A DNA stretch of 64,000 nt from Escherichia phage MN01: the sequence record MT129652.1; one strand, 5' to 3'. The translations under genes and the position numbers were made by a program. Every line of letters starts with the position of its first letter. The first letter of the stretch is position 1. A model generated the notes under the pieces. It saw nothing but the letters and a program-made list of their open reading frames with translations, did no database searches and was not told the DNA's origin. This document shows, piece after piece, positions 9,631 through 53,853 of the stretch.

Positions 9631-9667
9631 TGCTTTAATTTTATGGCTGTATAATGGTTCTAGACCC
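9631..9667 (+). promoter_or_regulatory. middle (MotA-dependent) promoter module for uvsY
   Basis: MotA-box-like TGCTTTA at 9631-9637, 12 nt spacer, TATAAT at 9650-9655, followed by conserved GGTTCTAGACCC. Confidence 0.65.
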
Positions 9668-9683
9668 TTACATTGGATACATT

Positions 9684-10118
9684 ATGAAAACAGAGATTGA
9701 ATATAAGTTAGAAGTCTTTCAGGATGAGTTAGATGCAGATTTAAAAATTGATGGTACGCAACTTCAATATGAAACACAAAACAACGTTTTGTTGCATAGC
9801 AAATGGTTGAGATTGTATACCAACTGCAAGAAAGAAATAATGCGTCTTGAGATTCAGAAGAAAACTGCACTGAAAAAACGACTAGACCATTATACGGGAA
9901 GGGGTGACCCAGGGGAAGAGGTATGCATGGATGTATACGAGAAGTCAGAATTGAAAACAGTCATGGCCGCAGATTCAAGCGTACTGAAGATTGATACTTC
10001 AATTCAGTATTGGGCACTACTCCAGGACTTCTGTAGCGCTGCATTAGATGGTGTTAAGTCACGAAGTTTCGCACTTAAACATATGTTAGAAATAAGACAA
10101 TTTGAGGCAGGCAAGTAA
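9684..10118 (+). CDS. uvsY: recombination mediator UvsY
   Basis: Close match to T4 UvsY as recalled (KLQYE..NNV, SKWL, GRGD, QYW, FCS.ALD, KSR.FA.KH); start at MKTEIEY. Confidence 0.9.
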   Translation: MKTEIEYKLEVFQDELDADLKIDGTQLQYETQNNVLLHSKWLRLYTNCKKEIMRLEIQKKTALKKRLDHYTGRGDPGEEVCMDVYEKSELKTVMAADSSVLKIDTSIQYWALLQDFCSAALDGVKSRSFALKHMLEIRQFEAGK

Positions 10119-10943: not shown

Positions 10944-12442
10944 TATATTTCCACCTGTTTAATTACATAATTGAATTTTTCGTCTGCATACCGCTGAATA
11001 CGTTCTAATGCATGTTTAAGCGCAAAGTTAATATGAACATATTTCTTTTTAGCGTTTGCTGATTTGGGTTTGACCCCCATATCATCCACAATGTCCCACA
11101 CGTTTGCGGTCGATTTAGATTCATGTTTTCGAAGCACACGGCCAATTGTCTGGAGTACAATTACCTTTGACTTGACCGGGTGAGCGAAAATAATATGATG
11201 GAGGTTTTTAACGGAAATACCCGTCGAGAATACACCATATGAAGCTACAACAATAATTCCTTTTCCATTCTCTGCCATGACCTTCAGAGCATTACGGGTT
11301 TCGGTATCAACTTCCCCGGAAACATAATACACTTTCTCATGACCAGCTTCCTTAATCATTTCAAACATCGATTTGCCGTGCTCGATATTCTTAAACATCA
11401 AAAAGACGTTTTCATCTTTTTTAGAAAGCTTGAGGGCAAGGTTTGTCACCCATTTATTTCGGCGTGTAGCTTTTGTAATTACCTTGATTTCATCCTGATA
11501 AGTTTTGCCTTTCATTTTAACGGTGAATTCATCAGGGTAACGAAGGAAAATACTATTTATTTTAAGGTCAGTAACCTGACCGTCTTCCATCAATTTAGAT
11601 GTTGACACTGGTTTAAAGATATCACCAAACAGACCCATATATTGCATAAGGTTGGCTTTGCCATCACGGAGTGAACCTGACAAACCAAATTTAAACATGC
11701 AATTCGTAAGGCCTTCGATAACCGTCGAAATCGATTTACCGGTCGCCATATGACATTCGTCATTCATAAACTGGCCAAACTGTTCAAACCATTCTTTAGG
11801 TTGTTTTACAGCCGTCTGATAAGTCGATACATAAATCATCGCATCAGAATCACGTTTAGTCCCAGAACGAATACCCAAACAAGCTTCACGAGGGAACAGT
11901 CGATAATCAACAAAGTCATTAATCATCTGGTCAACAAGCGCGGTTGTAGGAACAAGGATAAGAACCTTGCCTTCATAGTTCTCGAGGTAATATCGCGCCA
12001 GAAGCGCCTGGATGAGGCTTTTACCTGCAGACGTAGGTAAGTTCAAAATCTTTCTTCTGTTGACCAGGCCATCATATACGGCGTCAGATTGATACCAATG
12101 GGGCGTTATCTTAGTATTGCCTGAATAGATTTCTTTTGACTCAACCCATTTGTTGAATTCTTCGCGAGAGATTTCTTCTTTCTCGGTGATTTGTGGGTCA
12201 ATCCAGAATGAATAGCCAAACTGGTCAGCGAACTTTTTAATTTGATTAACCAAACCGTATGGTAATTTACGATTGTAATCCAGGAGGCGGATTCGTCCGT
12301 CCCAAACTCCCTGCTTGAATTTTGGATTGAAGCGATAGTTTTCAGCTTCGAAGCTGAAGTAATCACGGAGTTCATAGAAGATTCCATCTTCACATTCAAC
12401 ATGCACGTGACTAAAATTTAGAAAGTTGATTTTAATATCCAT
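10943..12442 (-). CDS. uvsW: UvsW DNA/RNA helicase
   Basis: SF2 helicase motifs (Walker A TSAGKS, DECH box) and resemblance to T4 UvsW; start at internal Met downstream of late promoter. Confidence 0.85.
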   Translation of the reverse strand: MDIKINFLNFSHVHVECEDGIFYELRDYFSFEAENYRFNPKFKQGVWDGRIRLLDYNRKLPYGLVNQIKKFADQFGYSFWIDPQITEKEEISREEFNKWVESKEIYSGNTKITPHWYQSDAVYDGLVNRRKILNLPTSAGKSLIQALLARYYLENYEGKVLILVPTTALVDQMINDFVDYRLFPREACLGIRSGTKRDSDAMIYVSTYQTAVKQPKEWFEQFGQFMNDECHMATGKSISTVIEGLTNCMFKFGLSGSLRDGKANLMQYMGLFGDIFKPVSTSKLMEDGQVTDLKINSIFLRYPDEFTVKMKGKTYQDEIKVITKATRRNKWVTNLALKLSKKDENVFLMFKNIEHGKSMFEMIKEAGHEKVYYVSGEVDTETRNALKVMAENGKGIIVVASYGVFSTGISVKNLHHIIFAHPVKSKVIVLQTIGRVLRKHESKSTANVWDIVDDMGVKPKSANAKKKYVHINFALKHALERIQRYADEKFNYVIKQVEI

Positions 12443-18023: not shown

Positions 18024-18063
18024 TTTGCTTCAAATAAAAATGCGGTATAATGGTTCTAGACCC
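18024..18063 (+). promoter_or_regulatory. middle promoter module upstream of rnlB
   Basis: TTGCTTCA MotA-box-like element, 12 nt spacer, TATAAT at 18046-18051, then GGTTCTAGACCC. Confidence 0.6.
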
Positions 18064-18148
18064 TTTGCGACTATTAATTCCTTTCAGAGAAAGAAAGTAT
18101 AGTGGGTCTAATTTATAATGATATTTATAACATCAAAAGTGAGAGAAT

Positions 18149-25927: not shown

Positions 25928-27501
25928 TAGAAATCCTCTTCTTCTTCTTCAGGGTTTTGGAAACGAGCCTCTTTGGACTCCAATTCAATTTGCTTAGCTT
26001 CTTGATTAATTTCTTCATCAGACATCTGGAGGAAATCCTTCATAGCCGTTTGATGCGAAATATATTTACCGATAAACGGTTCAGCCATCGTTAGCATATT
26101 GATTCTGCGTTCCATGATTTCTGCGTCTTTCATTTCGGTGAAATAGCTATCACGGTTGAACGTAACTTTAATATTATTTAGTTCCTTTTCCCATTCCTCT
26201 TCTGAAATAATTTTTTTCAGGATAAGGTTGGTTTTAAGCGGGTCGAGGAAAACTTCTTCAAATTTATTCTGTAGCTGCCTAATCCATTTAGAGAAATTCA
26301 ATTCATCGCGAGTAATTGTCGCGCCCGCATCAAACATAACGCCACTGTTTTGGTCATTAGGGATACGAGATAATGGAATTCGGAGAGCCTGATACAGGTT
26401 GTTCTTAAACCAGCGAACATCGTCCATATCCGACATGCCTTGTGCACCCGGGAGAGTATCAACTTCGGTGACTGCTTTACCATCACGACGTTGCAACCAA
26501 TAGTCTTCTGTCATAGACATGTTGTGCTGTTGGTTTTTGATTTTACCCGTGGTTGCATCATATACGACACGGTTTTTCATCGTGTTCATAATATGTTGCA
26601 TATGCGCTGCTGCTTTACGAGACGGCATATTCCCGGTATCGATATAAAAGACTCGGCGGTCTGGTGCACGAGTTATACGATAAATGACTAAAGCATCTTC
26701 TAATAGTTTTAATTGGTTTGCAGGTTTAATTGCTCGTTGTAAGTATCCGATGATATTCTTGCCACAGCAATCGAGTAATCCAGAATGCGCATATACAATC
26801 GCCGCACGAGGAATTTTTATTTTAGTACCTGCTTCATATATACGACCATCGGCACAATAACTTTCATGGCCAGTATCGTATACAAAATATTCTCTGTAAC
26901 CATCGACAATTTTTGTACCATTTTCCATGCGTGTAACGATTTCACGGATGAACTGGATTTGTCTTGGGTCAAGGCGACGAAGTTCTTGAACTCCATCTTT
27001 AAGTTTTGCTGGGTTGATAATTTTGTGGAAGAAAATTCGAGAATCCACATACCAACGTTTAAAGTGGTCAGAACCTTTGCGCTCGAAATTAAGGAGGTTA
27101 TTAACTTCCGCGAATTCTTCGAGGATTCGGTCTTTAATTTTCTGACTAAATTCGGTAGCATCAAGGTTAAGAGCTACAACATCTTTACCGTCTTCAAAAA
27201 CGATAGCATCAGACACAATTTCTTGCACCGCGTTATCAACTTCATAATTATTTAGTAGGTTGCGGTAGGTGTCAATTAATTCCCTGGTATTTTTTACTTC
27301 AGGTTCATTGCTCCCGAACATCTGTTGCATCAATGCATTATACGGGACGTTTTGTTCTTGTGACTCAATTTCGCGAGCCCCATCGTCAAACTTCGGCCCG
27401 GTCATTGACTCTAAATTATTTTTTTCTTGTTGCTTATATTCTTGTTCATCTTCTTTAGCCCAAGGCTTAAGAAAATTTAGTATTGTGTTAAAACCTGCCA
27501 T
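25927..27501 (-). CDS. 20: portal vertex protein gp20
   Basis: 524 aa, same as T4 gp20; synteny. Confidence 0.9.
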
Positions 27502-27549
27502 TAGAGTCTCCGAAGTTTGGGAAATGAGGCCGAAGCCTCATAATAACTT

Positions 27550-27557
27550 TATTTATA
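27550..27557 (-). promoter_or_regulatory. late promoter for gene 20
   Basis: Plus-strand TATTTATA about 50 nt upstream of the gp20 start. Confidence 0.55.
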
Positions 27558-27558
27558 C

Positions 27559-28050
27559 TTATTCCCACCAGTCAATTGCGAACGTTGCTTCGAACGTTTC
27601 AATTTCGTTGTTCGAATCCCAATCCATCTGGACTTCCCCAACGTTGGTTGGCCACATGCCGGTAATAACAACTTCTTTCGTAACGGTCTTGCCATCACGA
27701 TGGAACTGGCGGACAGTAGCAGTTTTCTTATAATCGGCAGGAGCTGCACCGGTGATTTCGTTAGTCATACCGTGACACAGATTTTGCCAATCAACAATTG
27801 CTTGACGAACTTTATGAGCATCGTCGTTATAAATCGTAATAGTCCAGTCATCAAATGTACGGTCGCCCGCAACGTTGATTTTACGGTTCATGTAACCGAC
27901 AGGAACTTTTTCTACAATGCCAGCAGGCATCGGGGCTGCTTTACAATGGAAAGCAAAGTTTTTACCCAGGAATGGGATTTCGACTTCGAACAGGTTAGGG
28001 CGAGCAAAGTCGCCGGATTCGAAAGCGCGTGTGATATCGGTCAACTCCAT
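27559..28050 (-). CDS. 19: tail tube protein gp19
   Basis: 163 aa from internal Met (MELTDITRAFESGDFARPNLF...), very close to T4 gp19 as recalled. Confidence 0.9.
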   Translation of the reverse strand: MELTDITRAFESGDFARPNLFEVEIPFLGKNFAFHCKAAPMPAGIVEKVPVGYMNRKINVAGDRTFDDWTITIYNDDAHKVRQAIVDWQNLCHGMTNEITGAAPADYKKTATVRQFHRDGKTVTKEVVITGMWPTNVGEVQMDWDSNNEIETFEATFAIDWWE

Positions 28051-28102
28051 TAAGGAATCCTCTTTATAGACACAGGTCGCGCGAACGCGTCCCTGATGCA
28101 TG

Positions 28103-28110
28103 TATTTATA
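28103..28110 (-). promoter_or_regulatory. late promoter for gene 19
   Basis: Plus-strand TATTTATA about 53 nt upstream of the chosen start. Confidence 0.6.
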
Positions 28111-28170
28111 CTAGGTAATATGATTCATCATCTCAAGATAATGGCTTCCCAGAATCAACCACAGGAGCCC

Positions 28171-28217
28171 GTAGAACCGATTATGCTTTTATTTATAACA
28201 CTGTATAATGGTTCTAC
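28171..28217 (+). promoter_or_regulatory. middle-promoter module flanked by an 8-bp inverted repeat, oriented antisense to gene 18
   Basis: GTAGAACC ... ATGCTTTTA (MotA-box-like) ... TATAAT at 28204-28209 ... GGTTCTAC; same TATAATGGTTCTA core as at 9650 and 18046. Confidence 0.5.
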
Positions 28218-28254
28218 GGTTTCTAACTGATTAATTCATTCTAAGCGATGATAA

Positions 28255-30234
28255 TTATTGTGGCCCAATCAGCTCATCAAAATCAGCACCAGTGCTAGTG
28301 GCTACGAAGTTAAGAGTGATGTAGTTGATGCTGCGCGCAGGTTTAAAATAAATGCTAGCAACAAACTCATTTCGGTCTATGACCGACGGGGTGTTGTTAG
28401 TAGTATCACAAACTACACGACCTTCATAAATGCCACCAAGTGCACGAATACCATCCAAGTATTGAGAAGTTTCCATACGGAATGATGCACGAGTGAAGTT
28501 ATCGTTAAGCTCAAACAGTTTATATTTGGATGCGTCACCGATATTTTTCTTCAGCATATTCGTAAGACGACGAACGTTAATATGGTCCATCGGAGACGGA
28601 ACTTTAGTTGCAGTCTTATCACCATACAGAACAAAACCATCACCACCTGCGAAACCAACAACCGGGTTGATAGCTTCTTGATACATGCGGTCACGTTGGG
28701 TCTGACGTGGTTCAACAGCCAATTTCAGAACGTTCAGAATCTGACCGCGGTTATAACCAGCCGGAGACATCCAAGGCTGAGAAACATCATCAGTACGAGC
28801 ACACAGACCAGCCATATCAGCTGCCAGAGGAACCCAACGGTTAACGTCGTTATATTTATCATACTGATATTTATAGTTACCATCAATCGCTGCATAAGTC
28901 GTGCTGATATTCATGTTATCAGTATCAAATGCGCCAGTACCTGTACGCCAGTCAATCAGGTTATCCACTGCACGGGTCAGAGGAACGTTAACCAACAGAC
29001 CTTTCGGCGGGGAAATAAATGCCAGACAATCCTGACGTTCGTCAGCAATAGAAACCACGTGTTTCTGAACAGTGGAAGCAGTTGCATCACCTTCACCAGC
29101 TACTGCACCAGCGATAAGCAGGTTAATATGTAGAGCTTCACGGTCAGCAAACAGGTCCCAACCTTGCATCAAATCACCAGCGGTAATCTTATCGTTTGCA
29201 GAAATACCACCAGACAGATTGATGATACCACTGAAGCCTGCAGGCCAGTTGCGAGATGTTGCATAGATGTAGTTGGAAGTACCTTTTGCAAAGTAGTCAT
29301 CCAGGTAAATGTTATTACCGTAAACATCTTTTTCGCCCTGTTTGGTAGACAAAACAACGTTTTCGACGATTGCACCATCGCGGCGAACGATAATTGCATA
29401 TTGGTTTTCAGACTGCGGACCATAGTTAAACACGGCACGAGCCACAGAAGCACGCGTTCCGCCACCTGGGAAAATATTCAGATTTGCAGCTGCGCCTTTT
29501 TCAAAGTCAGCTTTAGATACGATTTCAACTTCCAGAGTCGAACCGATTTCACCTGGATAAAGAGCAACAACACCTGGCATTGCATATTTTGCTAGTGATG
29601 CCTGGAATTCCAGAGAAGTAATTGCTTCTTCACTGTTTTCTGCTTCAGTCAACAGAATGCCAGAATCGGTAACAATTTTCCCAACGGTGATGGTACCAGA
29701 TACACCAGAAGAAGTGGTTGTAACTTCCGCAGTCCATGCACTACCTAAATTAGGATACTGGTTAATAGTTTTGGCAAATGCAATAATCTTATTTGTAGGA
29801 ATAAAGATTGCCTGAATTTTACCATCAACGTCGACCTTGGTCACACGGCCAGCCGGTTCAACAACAGTCTGGTTGTGTTTAACCTGAATAACATCACCGA
29901 CAGCATAGTTTGTACCAGCAGTTACGATGGTAGTTTCAATATTGCCAGCAATAGGGGATGCGTTTTTAGCTTCGTCACGGTTAACAACACGTACAGTACG
30001 GAGGTCATTACCATATTGCAGGAAGTTCATCCCACTCATAAAGTAATCTGCTGTTTCATTATTCGGACCACCAAACAAATCAACAAGTTCAACTTCGTTT
30101 GTAATTTGAGTTACCTGGAAAGCTGGGCCCCACTGGAATTTACCAACCAGCGCCGCACGACCCGTCGCGTTACGAACAACAGTGCTTTGTACCGTTGTTT
30201 CTTTGAGCTCAATGCCCGGGGATAATAAAGCCAT
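28255..30234 (-). CDS. 18: tail sheath protein gp18
   Basis: 659 aa, same as T4 gp18; synteny. Confidence 0.9.
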   Translation of the reverse strand: MALLSPGIELKETTVQSTVVRNATGRAALVGKFQWGPAFQVTQITNEVELVDLFGGPNNETADYFMSGMNFLQYGNDLRTVRVVNRDEAKNASPIAGNIETTIVTAGTNYAVGDVIQVKHNQTVVEPAGRVTKVDVDGKIQAIFIPTNKIIAFAKTINQYPNLGSAWTAEVTTTSSGVSGTITVGKIVTDSGILLTEAENSEEAITSLEFQASLAKYAMPGVVALYPGEIGSTLEVEIVSKADFEKGAAANLNIFPGGGTRASVARAVFNYGPQSENQYAIIVRRDGAIVENVVLSTKQGEKDVYGNNIYLDDYFAKGTSNYIYATSRNWPAGFSGIINLSGGISANDKITAGDLMQGWDLFADREALHINLLIAGAVAGEGDATASTVQKHVVSIADERQDCLAFISPPKGLLVNVPLTRAVDNLIDWRTGTGAFDTDNMNISTTYAAIDGNYKYQYDKYNDVNRWVPLAADMAGLCARTDDVSQPWMSPAGYNRGQILNVLKLAVEPRQTQRDRMYQEAINPVVGFAGGDGFVLYGDKTATKVPSPMDHINVRRLTNMLKKNIGDASKYKLFELNDNFTRASFRMETSQYLDGIRALGGIYEGRVVCDTTNNTPSVIDRNEFVASIYFKPARSINYITLNFVATSTGADFDELIGPQ

Positions 30235-30263
30235 TTTGAGTCCTCTAATAGTTTGCTTTACTT

Positions 30264-32570
<2,307 letters not shown>

Positions 32571-51897: not shown

Positions 51898-52347
51898 ATG
51901 GCATACTCCGGGAAATTTAAGCCCACTAATATAGAAAAATATAAGGGCGACTGGAAGAAAATACAATACCGGTCAAGTTGGGAGGCTTGGCTGATGAGAT
52001 GGCTCGACAACCATCCGAACGTTGTTCAATGGGGTTCTGAGACTGTCATTATTCCCTACTTTAGCAATGCCGATGGTAAAAAGCGCAGATATTATATGGA
52101 TTTCTGGGTTAAGTTCGATACGGGACAACAGTTCTTTTTCGAAGTTAAGCCATTAAAAGAAACAAGACCTCCAGCCAAGCCAGTTAATAATACAGCCGCG
52201 AGTAAAAAGAGATTTATTAACGAGATGTACACCTGGAGCGTTAACTCTGACAAATGGAAAGCTGCGCAAGCTACCGCAGATAAAATGGGTATAACGTTCA
52301 GGATAATCACTGAAAACTCACTGAAAAAATTAGGATGGAAAGGATGA
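51898..52347 (+). CDS. 4: head completion protein gp4
   Basis: 149 aa (T4 gp4 150 aa); synteny 4-2-3-1. Confidence 0.8.
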
Positions 52348-53168
52348 GTATTTTTACATTTATCAATGAATCTGCAGATAAACCAGGTCCGAAACCCAGT
52401 AAATCCGAACAACAATGGGTTGAGATAGGGGTTGAATTTTATACAGCAAAAGAAAAAGGAATGACCTCGAAGAAGTTTGCTGAAGAGAAAGGAATCAACT
52501 ATTCGACCTTTACCAAAAGCATGTCAAGATATCATTCGAGAATTCAGACTGCTTATAAAGTATCCAAGCTCAAAAAGAAACCTGCTGGTAAACTTACGAA
52601 GGCTGAACGCCAGCTGATAATGGTGAATAGCTTTAGGAAGAGCATAAGAGATAAGATTGCCAACGAAGGCGCTGCAAGCAACACCAAATCTGCCAGATGG
52701 TTCGCAGAGACAATTAAGAAATCAGTTCGCGGACACGTAACGGCTAAACCTCAACCAGGTAAACTTTATGCTTATATCTATGATGCAAAGCATAAGGATA
52801 CTCTTCCATACTGGGACAAATATCCGTTAATCATTTATCTTGGTCTAGGTAAGCATAATTTGATGTATGGTTTGAACTTGCACTATATTCCACCAAAGGC
52901 ACGTCAAGAGTTCCTTGAGGAACTTCTTAAGCAATATGCTAATACTCCTACGATTACTAACAAGACTCATCTGAAGATTGATTGGTCAAAGGTGAAGGGA
53001 TTTAAAGGGGCTGACCAGATGATTAAAGCATATATACCTGGCAATATAAAAGGTACTATCACTGAAATCAAGCCCAGCGACTGGGCAAACGTTGTTATGC
53101 TTCCGTTGCAACAATTTATGTCGAAAGGCAAAAGATTCTCTTCACAGAAAGTATGGAGAAATTCATAA
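52335..53168 (+). CDS. 2: DNA end protector protein gp2
   Basis: 277 aa (T4 gp2 274 aa); basic; synteny. Confidence 0.75.
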
Positions 53169-53203
53169 TCTATTATCGGTCAGTGTTATTGGTAAGGACA
53201 AAA

Positions 53204-53241
53204 GGTCTAGAACCATTATAACACTGATTGTTTTAAAGCAA
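53204..53241 (-). promoter_or_regulatory. middle-promoter module on the minus strand, antisense to gene 2
   Basis: Minus strand reads TTTGCTTTA (MotA-box-like), 13 nt spacer, TATAAT, GGTTCTAGACC: the same module as at 9650, 18046 and 28204. Confidence 0.45.
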
Positions 53242-53253
53242 ACAAGGTGCATT

Positions 53254-53853
53254 ATGTCAGGTTTATATAATCAAACTAACACGACTAACTTTATATTAGA
53301 GGTAAGCGATTCAAACCTCACACAGACCTTTAAACTCAACGTTCAAGACGTTACCCTCCCTGGAGTTCACATCCCTGTGACAGATGTCCCTGGTGGAACA
53401 CAAGGTATAAATCGCTCCAGTCTTCCTGGTAGTACAATAGAATTCGACCCGCTGATTGTTAACTTTCTGTGTGACAAAGACCTAAGAGCATGGCTTGACA
53501 TTTATAAATGGATGCTCTCGCTCAACAACTACATCACACACGAATCAAAAGCATGGCATCCGAAGGGTCGCCCCGAAGCGGTCACGCTTCATATCTTAGA
53601 TAATAACAAGGACAAAATTGTCATGTCAATCCATTACTATGGGGCATGGCCGTCCGACCTGTCAGAGATTCAGTACTCATATAAAGAAGATTCTGACCCG
53701 GCTATCAATGCAACAGCAACTTTTAACTTTAAGTCTTTTGCTGTAGAAATTGATGGTATAATAATAGAAGGTAGACCACAGATTGATAGTAATGCAGCAA
53801 TGCAACAGGAAATCAGGTCTAAGTCAATGCATCCATCTATGAGAAACGTATGA
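53254..53853 (+). CDS. 3: tail completion / sheath stabilizer protein gp3
   Basis: About 199 aa from ATG at 53254; synteny between 2 and 1. Confidence 0.7.
   Translation: MSGLYNQTNTTNFILEVSDSNLTQTFKLNVQDVTLPGVHIPVTDVPGGTQGINRSSLPGSTIEFDPLIVNFLCDKDLRAWLDIYKWMLSLNNYITHESKAWHPKGRPEAVTLHILDNNKDKIVMSIHYYGAWPSDLSEIQYSYKEDSDPAINATATFNFKSFAVEIDGIIIEGRPQIDSNAAMQQEIRSKSMHPSMRNV

Follow-up and report, generated by a model that had tools for sequence, protein, structure and literature searches.

What is a middle promoter of near-consensus quality doing in a spacer where it has no gene to serve and faces the end of a late gene on the opposite strand? This question is raised by the spacer between gene 18 (tail sheath) and gene 19 (tail tube) of Escherichia phage MN01 (sequence record MT129652.1), of which a stretch of 64,000 nucleotides, here called the window, was analyzed. 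T4 is the reference system for phage transcription timing, and, judged by sequence identity, the window comes from a T4-like myovirus of the genus Gaprivervirus: it is ~99% identical to Yersinia phage P8, and the phages closest to the region (P8, Escherichia phages VR20, VR25, SP18, and others) belong to this genus, with 95-99% identity. Our answer is that positions 28180-28216 are probably an active MotA/AsiA-dependent middle promoter, a reading to which we give a probability of about 0.6, and that this promoter appears to belong to a conserved subclass with other wrong-strand members. Our confidence in any particular downstream role is much lower.

The consensus for MotA-dependent promoters is (a/t)(a/t)(a/t)TGCTTtA, 12 +/- 1 bp from TAtaaT, and an excellent -10 element is the stringent requirement (PMC2988021). 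At the gene 18/19 element the TGCTT core is exact, the final position of the MotA box is T where the consensus has A, the -10 is a perfect TATAAT, and the distance from TGCTTTT to TATAAT is 13 nt, equal in 11 relatives. Relatives also encode the activators: VR20, a member of the same genus, has annotated motA and asiA (both genes fall outside the window), and P8 has a MotA homolog (E = 3e-23, 33% identity to T4 MotA). A scan for sigma-70 -35/-10 pairs did not pick up this site, as expected for a promoter with a MotA box in place of the -35. Every sequence-level feature of a T4 MotA-dependent middle promoter is present, in agreement with the middle-promoter likeness claimed in an earlier note on this DNA. 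Transcription would start at A28216, by homology to the mapped starts of T4 PuvsY and PnrdC.7, which fall on the A after TCT in the box that follows the -10. The 13-nt spacer holds a second signal, in the opposite direction: TATTTATA at 28190-28197 (+) is the T4 late-promoter box TATAAATA read on the gene 18/19 strand. The minus strand thus carries TATAAATA at 28197-28190 and again at 28110-28103, both upstream of gene 19. An inverted repeat, 10 bp long and not 8 bp as first described, encloses the MotA box, the spacer, and the -10.

A chance origin of this arrangement is contradicted by its recurrence. TGCTT-N13-15-TATAAT occurs at six sites in the whole 64-kb window against 0.36 expected, and GGTTCTA follows at four of the six; the longer composite TGCTT-N13-15-TATAATGGTTCTA has four matches, one at each of the four sites under discussion, against 0.00 expected in 100 shuffles. 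The earlier note had described one module present four times, and this is correct for the composite. It is not correct for the exact 17-mer TATAATGGTTCTAGACC, which was found at only three sites (9650-9666 and 18046-18062 on the + strand, 53204-53220 on the minus strand; three matches vs 0.19 expected): at 28204 only the 13 nt of TATAATGGTTCTA are common, followed by CGGT in place of GACC. The gene 18/19 copy had also been taken for the only antisense one, but the copy at 53204-53240 (-), between gene 2 and gene 3, is antisense as well and runs toward gene 2. Of the window's four modules, two are thus directed at late genes (gene 18 and gene 2). The other two, the first and second copies, lie at the positions of the mapped T4 promoters PuvsY and PrnlB, which bears out the parallel with T4 that had been drawn for uvsY.

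Table 1. Coordinates of the gene 18/19 element, of related modules, and of neighboring genes. Positions are those of the window, except in the last two rows, which refer to T4; the minus strand of the T4 GenBank record corresponds to the + strand of the window.
Feature	Position	Strand	Remarks
Inverted repeat, left arm CCGTAGAACC	28169-28178		100% complementary to 28210-28219; 31 nt between arms
MotA-box-like element ATTATGCTTTT	28180-28190	+	Core TGCTTTT at 28184-28190; invariant in 11/11 aligned Gaprivervirus sequences, VR26 included
Spacer, MotA box to -10 (13 nt)	28191-28203	+	The core's only variable positions are 28198-28203
-10 hexamer TATAAT, sigma-70 type	28204-28209	+	
Family box GGTTCTA	28210-28216	+	Predicted start A28216
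Inverted repeat, right arm GGTTCTACGG	28210-28219		
Distal late-promoter box TATAAATA	28190-28197	-	Putative gene 19 late promoter inside the middle-promoter spacer; invariant in relatives
Proximal late-promoter box TATAAATA upstream of gene 19	28103-28110	-	Conserved in relatives; positional match to the T4 proximal late promoter
Gene 18 (tail sheath, 659 aa)	28255-30234	-	Stop at 28255; module aims at its 3' end
Gene 19 (tail tube, 163 aa)	27559-28050	-	From translation and the annotation of relatives
Sense copy upstream of uvsY (ATG 9684)	9631-9666	+	Ortholog of T4 PuvsY/oriF
Sense copy upstream of rnlB (ATG 18149)	18026-18062	+	
Second antisense copy, TGCTTTA-N13-TATAATGGTTCTAGACC	53204-53240	-	Aims at the gene 2 3' end; predicted start A53208
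10-bp inverted repeat TCAGTGTTAT / ATAACACTGA	53180-53227		Encloses the start region of the gene 3/gene 2 module
Gene 2	52335-53168	+	
Gene 3	53254-53853	+	
T4 srd/modA antisense copy	-10 at 11885-11890	+	Toward modA; VR20 ortholog has its -10 at 11024
T4 gene 3/gene 2 antisense copy	-10 at 75988-75993	+	Toward gene 2; VR20 ortholog has its -10 at 75162

The element is also conserved at its own site. In 11 aligned Gaprivervirus genomes, the MotA box, TATAAATA, TATAAT, and GG.TCTA are unchanged, and variation is found in the rest of the spacer. The flanks of the core are ~79% identical in RZ and VR7; in VR26 neither flank of the 36-nt core can be aligned. The left arm CCGTAGAACC, which is invariant in 10 Gaprivervirus genomes, is absent from VR26, so that the inverted repeat is lost there and the box spacing kept. 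The module is a conserved island flanked by two variable segments, in a gene 18/gene 19 spacer of 204 nt (the true start of gene 19 is 28050; the program-made start of its open reading frame [ORF], 28101, is wrong).

A deeper comparison is offered by the second antisense module. It was recovered from 15 IMG/VR loci in which gp3 identity ranges from 54 to 100%, and it is kept across the Tevenvirinae lineages sampled, namely T4, Gaprivervirus, Dhakavirus, and four more. The MotA-like boxes of these modules vary (TGCTTAA, cGCTTAA, TTGCTAAA, cGCTTTA) and their spacers measure 12-13 nt; TATAATGG is invariant, and the rest of the intergenic spacer is variable. A third antisense module, between srd and modA, is common to T4 and VR20. 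In the gene 18/19 spacer itself, an antisense -10 and box are found in two other lineages: the VR5/Dhakavirus group has TATAATGGTTTTAGGTCC with a weak MotA box, and F48-like Klebsiella phages have TGCTAAA-N13-TATAATGACTTCAGGTC. Neither of these modules overlaps a late promoter. Sequence comparison therefore supports the antisense reading, through gene 3/gene 2 orthologs from T4 to Gaprivervirus and beyond and through gene 18/19 modules in two more lineages.

Two further points concern the activator and the history of these spacers. The MotA of the genus (VR20 162959-163567; P8 122045-122644) is ~33% identical to T4 MotA, and its predicted boxes still follow the T4 consensus TGCTT(T/C)A; TGCTAAA, on the other hand, is apparently used as a MotA box by the F48-like Klebsiella phages and by two IMG/VR lineages (loci L041 and L042). 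In the Dhakavirus group (L033-L037, L056-L059), the gene 3/gene 2 and gene 18/19 modules have a common 3' flank, CTGGGATAATAGATTA, that extends as far as the stop codon of the late gene upstream, which suggests copying between the two spacers.

How does the element relate to known middle promoters? All 58 mapped T4 middle promoters were extracted for comparison. Most of them are A/T-rich after the -10, and TATAATG(G/A)NTC is found only in PuvsY, PnrdC.7, PnrdD, and P34i. P34i, a mapped middle promoter that lies antisense inside late gene 34, is a precedent for the orientation seen here; around its -10 it reads TATAATGGTCCCAG, a near match to the box that PuvsY has, and both are conserved in VR20. 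In addition, T4 has two further MotA-type promoters of consensus quality that run counter to the flanking genes (NC_000866, loci L023 and L020), the srd/modA and gene 3/gene 2 copies of Table 1. The original T4 GenBank record has no promoter features; a T4 differential RNA-seq (dRNA-seq) preprint reports 22 antisense starts (bioRxiv 10.1101/2024.04.04.588121). A scan of the VR20 genome showed that many sites homologous to T4 middle promoters carry a TGCTT-type promoter. Its set contains the srd/modA and gene 3/gene 2 antisense copies, the gene 18/19 copy, the uvsY and rnlB copies, and a P34i homolog; five GGTTCTA modules are present, and all wrong-strand perfect MotA-type promoters carry the box or a close variant.

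In both the T4 and the VR20 sets, the sequence after the -10 is more similar between copies in the same genome than between orthologs across genomes: downstream of the -10, T4 srd/modA and T4 PuvsY are identical at 18 of 20 positions, versus 11 of 20 for T4 PuvsY and VR20 uvsY. Because same-genome copies resemble each other more than their orthologs do, the box evolves in concert, either by gene conversion between copies or under a lineage-specific reader. Taken together, a MotA box, a 12-13-nt spacer, TATAAT, and a GG(T/G)TCTA box running to the predicted start site define what appears to be a conserved subclass of middle promoters.

The sense copies have peculiarities of their own. An ATG inside TATAATGG is in frame with uvsY (window 9650-9686), and the annotated uvsY of VR20 (114575; 154 aa vs 137 aa in T4) apparently begins inside the promoter; the true start of uvsY is probably the ATG at window 9684. 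In the rnlB leader, a 7-bp inverted repeat, TAGACCC (18057-18063) / GGGTCTA (18104-18110), would fold the rnlB mRNA, at its predicted 5' end, into a terminal hairpin, and a second, degenerate box, TATAGTGGGTCTA, is found at 18098-18110.

If the gene 18/19 promoter fires, the following course of events can be proposed. In the middle period, sigma-70 RNA polymerase, remodeled by AsiA and recruited by MotA, would bind the + strand and initiate at about A28216, transcribing away from gene 19 and into the 3' end of gene 18. The product would be an untranslated antisense ("anti-late") RNA, complementary to the gene 18 3' end, with no ORF or intrinsic terminator. In the late period, the spacer TATAAATA (28197-28190, minus strand) would be read as a gene 19 late promoter, and the site would switch direction at the middle-to-late transition. 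The two polymerase forms should exclude each other, because their -10 elements lie 6 bp apart on opposite strands. In read-through late mRNA, the 10-bp inverted repeat would form an intercistronic hairpin. The antisense RNA may in turn influence the expression of genes 18 and 19.

The sequence downstream fits a non-coding product. Two statements of the earlier note stand, that the module is aimed at the 3' end of gene 18, which is encoded on the other strand, and that no plausible ORF lies ahead of it: the site sits between the gene 18 stop and gene 19, and no credible ORF, terminator, or Rfam family was found downstream on the + strand. Specifically, an Rfam scan of 27000-31000 gave no match at E <= 1, a terminator scan detected no + strand terminator downstream, and the predicted antisense RNA has no unusual structure (z = -1.2). 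Three candidate ORFs were rejected. One, at 28096-28230 (+), would encode 44 aa and is listed as a hypothetical protein in P8, UPEC07, and pEC-M719-6WT.2. It begins before the predicted transcription start, spans both the module and the late promoter of gene 19, matches no known family, and is in all likelihood a false gene call. The antisense ORFs 28258-28485 (TTG start) and 28582-29133 have no Pfam match and at most a marginal PHROG match, and the former shows radical substitutions among relatives.

When the gene 18/19 spacer is folded as late-sense RNA, the late box falls within a hairpin of ~15 bp (z = -3.1) that has the 10-bp repeat as its base. This hairpin precedes the start of gene 19 by ~130 nt and leaves out the ribosome-binding site of that gene; late transcripts from the internal late box would be without its 5' arm. 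In the gene 2/gene 3 spacer, a perfect 10-bp repeat underlies a similar late-sense hairpin (z = -3.4), which surrounds the -10 and the start; its arms differ between Dhakavirus and the group of locus L038, with complementarity kept. The gene 2/gene 3 hairpins were judged from single-sequence folds, and RNAalifold on the mixed-genus alignment of this spacer gave no consensus structure, distant members being misaligned. An intercistronic hairpin contains or adjoins the complement of the -10 in most lineages.

Several observations weigh against an active promoter. The Gaprivervirus genomes compared are close relatives, and the repeat arms show no covariation. The reading assumes identical MotA box specificity, and the MotA of the genus is only 33% identical to that of T4. 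The Dhakavirus gene 18/19 copy has a poor MotA box (cGCTGTA). Both T4 antisense copies are missing from the 58 mapped middle promoters (Hinton 2010 table). T4 and most other genera have no antisense promoter between genes 18 and 19, and the element must therefore be dispensable for the gene 18/19 unit. Finally, the late promoter and the hairpin can account for part of the conserved core, in which TATAAT pairs with ATTAT in the late-sense stem.

The last two points lead to the alternative that survives best: a look-alike without promoter function, in which selection acts only on the distal late promoter TATAAATA and the mRNA hairpin, and the likeness to a MotA box and -10 came by ectopic gene conversion from a different module in that genome, as the relic of a copied cassette. 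The T4 gene 18/19 spacer speaks for this reading, with two TATAAATA late boxes, one of them at the corresponding position adjoining a hairpin, and no middle-promoter-like sequence. The absence of the copy from most genera, the pairing of the -10 within the hairpin, and the greater likeness of same-genome paralogs than of orthologs all agree with it, as does the fact that the gene 18/19 copy has GCTTTTATTT and TATAATGGTTCTA.GG in common with the VR20 srd/modA copy. However, in VR26, where the hairpin arms are lost, the MotA box, TATAATGG, and the 13-nt spacing are all preserved. A late promoter requires only TATAAATA, but the invariant part also comprises TGCTTT and TATAATGG, and it is positions of the spacer that vary. 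Two other lineages keep the gene 18/19 antisense -10 and box clear of a late promoter, and the gene 3/gene 2 and srd/modA copies, which have no late promoter, are conserved from T4 to Gaprivervirus. On this evidence, we regard a functionless look-alike as unlikely.

Compared with an ordinary middle promoter, one of the origin type would have a different purpose. As at oriF/PuvsY and oriG/P34i, a persistent R-loop downstream would prime leading-strand synthesis, and the antisense copies would be replication initiators. T4 oriF and oriG each consist of a MotA-dependent promoter and a downstream unwinding element, and oriG lies antisense within a late gene (PMC3016281). The gene 18/19 element has the middle-mode promoter, as far as sequence can tell, the antisense copies have no gene to express, and the box of PuvsY and its variant in P34i, both conserved in VR20, link the family to these origins. 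Three T4 non-origin members also lie 3-6 kb from oriA, oriC, and oriE, a post hoc observation that carries little weight. On the other hand, no clear unwinding element is seen, positions +1 to +60 having an A+T content of 0.63 where the genome averages 0.59 +/- 0.07 (T4 PuvsY has 0.70 vs 0.65 by the same measure), and the transcribed strand after the start is C-rich, not G-rich. According to the review cited above, origins share no motif and there is no middle promoter near oriE (PMC3016281), and PnrdC.7 and the rnlB copy are ordinary mRNA promoters with the same box. We consider an origin-type promoter very unlikely. Just as improbable is its broader version, in which GG(T/G)TCTA-box promoters form a dedicated class for non-coding primers or R-loops, the antisense copies initiate replication, and the box is read by a lineage-specific factor; if it were true, it would help to define oriA, oriC, and oriE, T4 origins that are poorly understood, at the sequence level.

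Mobile genes near the modules raise a third possibility, namely that the element is a recombination cassette of the PeSL/PmSL type, a promoter plus stem-loop that serves as a homology patch for insertion, deletion, or swap of optional genes, here the HNH-like gene 19.1. The 201-aa gene "19.1," absent from the window, lies between the module and gene 18 in RZ (L001 1247-1852) and VR7 (L016 1645-2250); in VR26 (L015 711-1394) a homolog assigned to the same PHROG, phrog_5104, lies between the module and gene 19. The gene shows a DH..N motif and weak similarity to endonuclease VII and to homing endonucleases. Because it is inserted to the right of the module in some relatives and to the left in another, the gene 18/19 spacer is an insertion hot spot. 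Likewise, P479 (L029 633-1292) has a homing endonuclease gene (phrog_655; HNH-type motif by eye) on the late-gene strand between gene 2 and the gene 3/gene 2 module. The conserved island between two hypervariable segments, the roughly five copies per genome that are homogenized copy to copy, and the description of Mot-box-based PmSLs in phage nt-1 (PMC4122927) speak for a cassette as well.

The published cassettes, however, are built differently. PeSLs and PmSLs point toward a downstream gene, carry its Shine-Dalgarno sequence and start codon, and have the stem-loop upstream of the promoter (PMC4122927). The gene 18/19 module is antisense, with no credible downstream ORF, and lies inside its stem-loop, and no second module flanks the inserted genes. 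A cassette would also be compatible with promoter activity, which makes it a weak rival, and we think it improbable as a full explanation. The suggestion in the earlier note that the copy might be the relic of a mobilized promoter cassette thus holds in part: a cassette-like history is plausible, as copies are homogenized within the genome and mobile HNH genes adjoin them, but a dead relic is unlikely, as the 36-nt core survives in VR26 between two unalignable flanks. That the module is the promoter of a lost homing-endonuclease gene can be dismissed, since every insert, in RZ/VR7, VR26, and P479 alike, has the orientation of the late genes and not that of the module.

If the element is a MotA/AsiA-dependent middle promoter, as we favor, what does it add? 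Nearly all of the ~60 T4 middle promoters on the list serve genes; the window suggests a small, conserved, consensus-quality set that serves none and faces the wrong way, two of them unannotated in T4 itself. Should these promoters fire, they would be defined sources of pre-late antisense RNA against gene 18, gene 2, and modA, and at gene 18/19 a single stretch of 36 bp would serve one polymerase form in the middle period and another, heading the other way, in the late period. With its coordinated changes within each genome, the box that follows the -10 offers a concrete target in the search for a new DNA- or RNA-level signal. Should they be silent, the lesson would be one of caution, because hairpins and late promoters could then preserve perfect MotA-type matches. 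Middle promoters are already known, as is P34i, the mapped antisense precedent, and the gene 18/19 element is in that respect a new member with an unusual placement. In the literature available, we found no description of the wrong-strand subclass, of the two unannotated T4 copies, or of the concerted box.

Among the closest known systems is the "anti-late" RNA of T4, early and middle transcripts complementary to late mRNA that were recognized in hybridization work of the 1970s. A pre-late promoter opposite late genes would yield such RNA; to our knowledge, anti-late RNA has never been tied to defined promoters of the GG(T/G)TCTA-box type. T4 P34i/oriG is similar in being a MotA-dependent promoter in a late gene region, directed against the late transcript; it differs in that it lies in coding sequence, whereas the gene 18/19 element is intergenic and has no clear A+T-rich unwinding element. 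With PeSLs and PmSLs (Arbiol 2010; Comeau 2014, PMC4122927), the element shares a short conserved promoter and stem-loop, several copies per genome, and a place beside optional-gene indels (19.1 or HNH genes adjoin the modules in RZ, VR7, VR26, and P479). Unlike them, it is opposite to its flanking genes, has no Shine-Dalgarno sequence or start codon, is enclosed by its stem, and is found in a conserved structural region and not in a hyperplastic one.

As in T4 I-TevI, segB, and gene e and in Aeh1 mobE, TATAAATA is placed so that late transcripts miss the 5' arm of the hairpin (PMC2988022; PMC3014915); there, the ribosome-binding site of the following gene is masked by the hairpin, whereas the gene 18/19 hairpin leaves that of gene 19 outside. 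In sequence, the element resembles above all T4 PuvsY and PnrdC.7, which have a MotA box at -30, a 12-13-nt spacer, TATAAT, and the same post--10 box, TATAATG(A/G)NTCTAAG(T/C)CC in T4 and TATAATGGTTCTA in the window. What sets the window element apart from these two promoters is its setting: no gene follows it, late genes lie antisense to it, a predicted mRNA hairpin encloses it, and its spacer holds a putative late promoter on the other strand.

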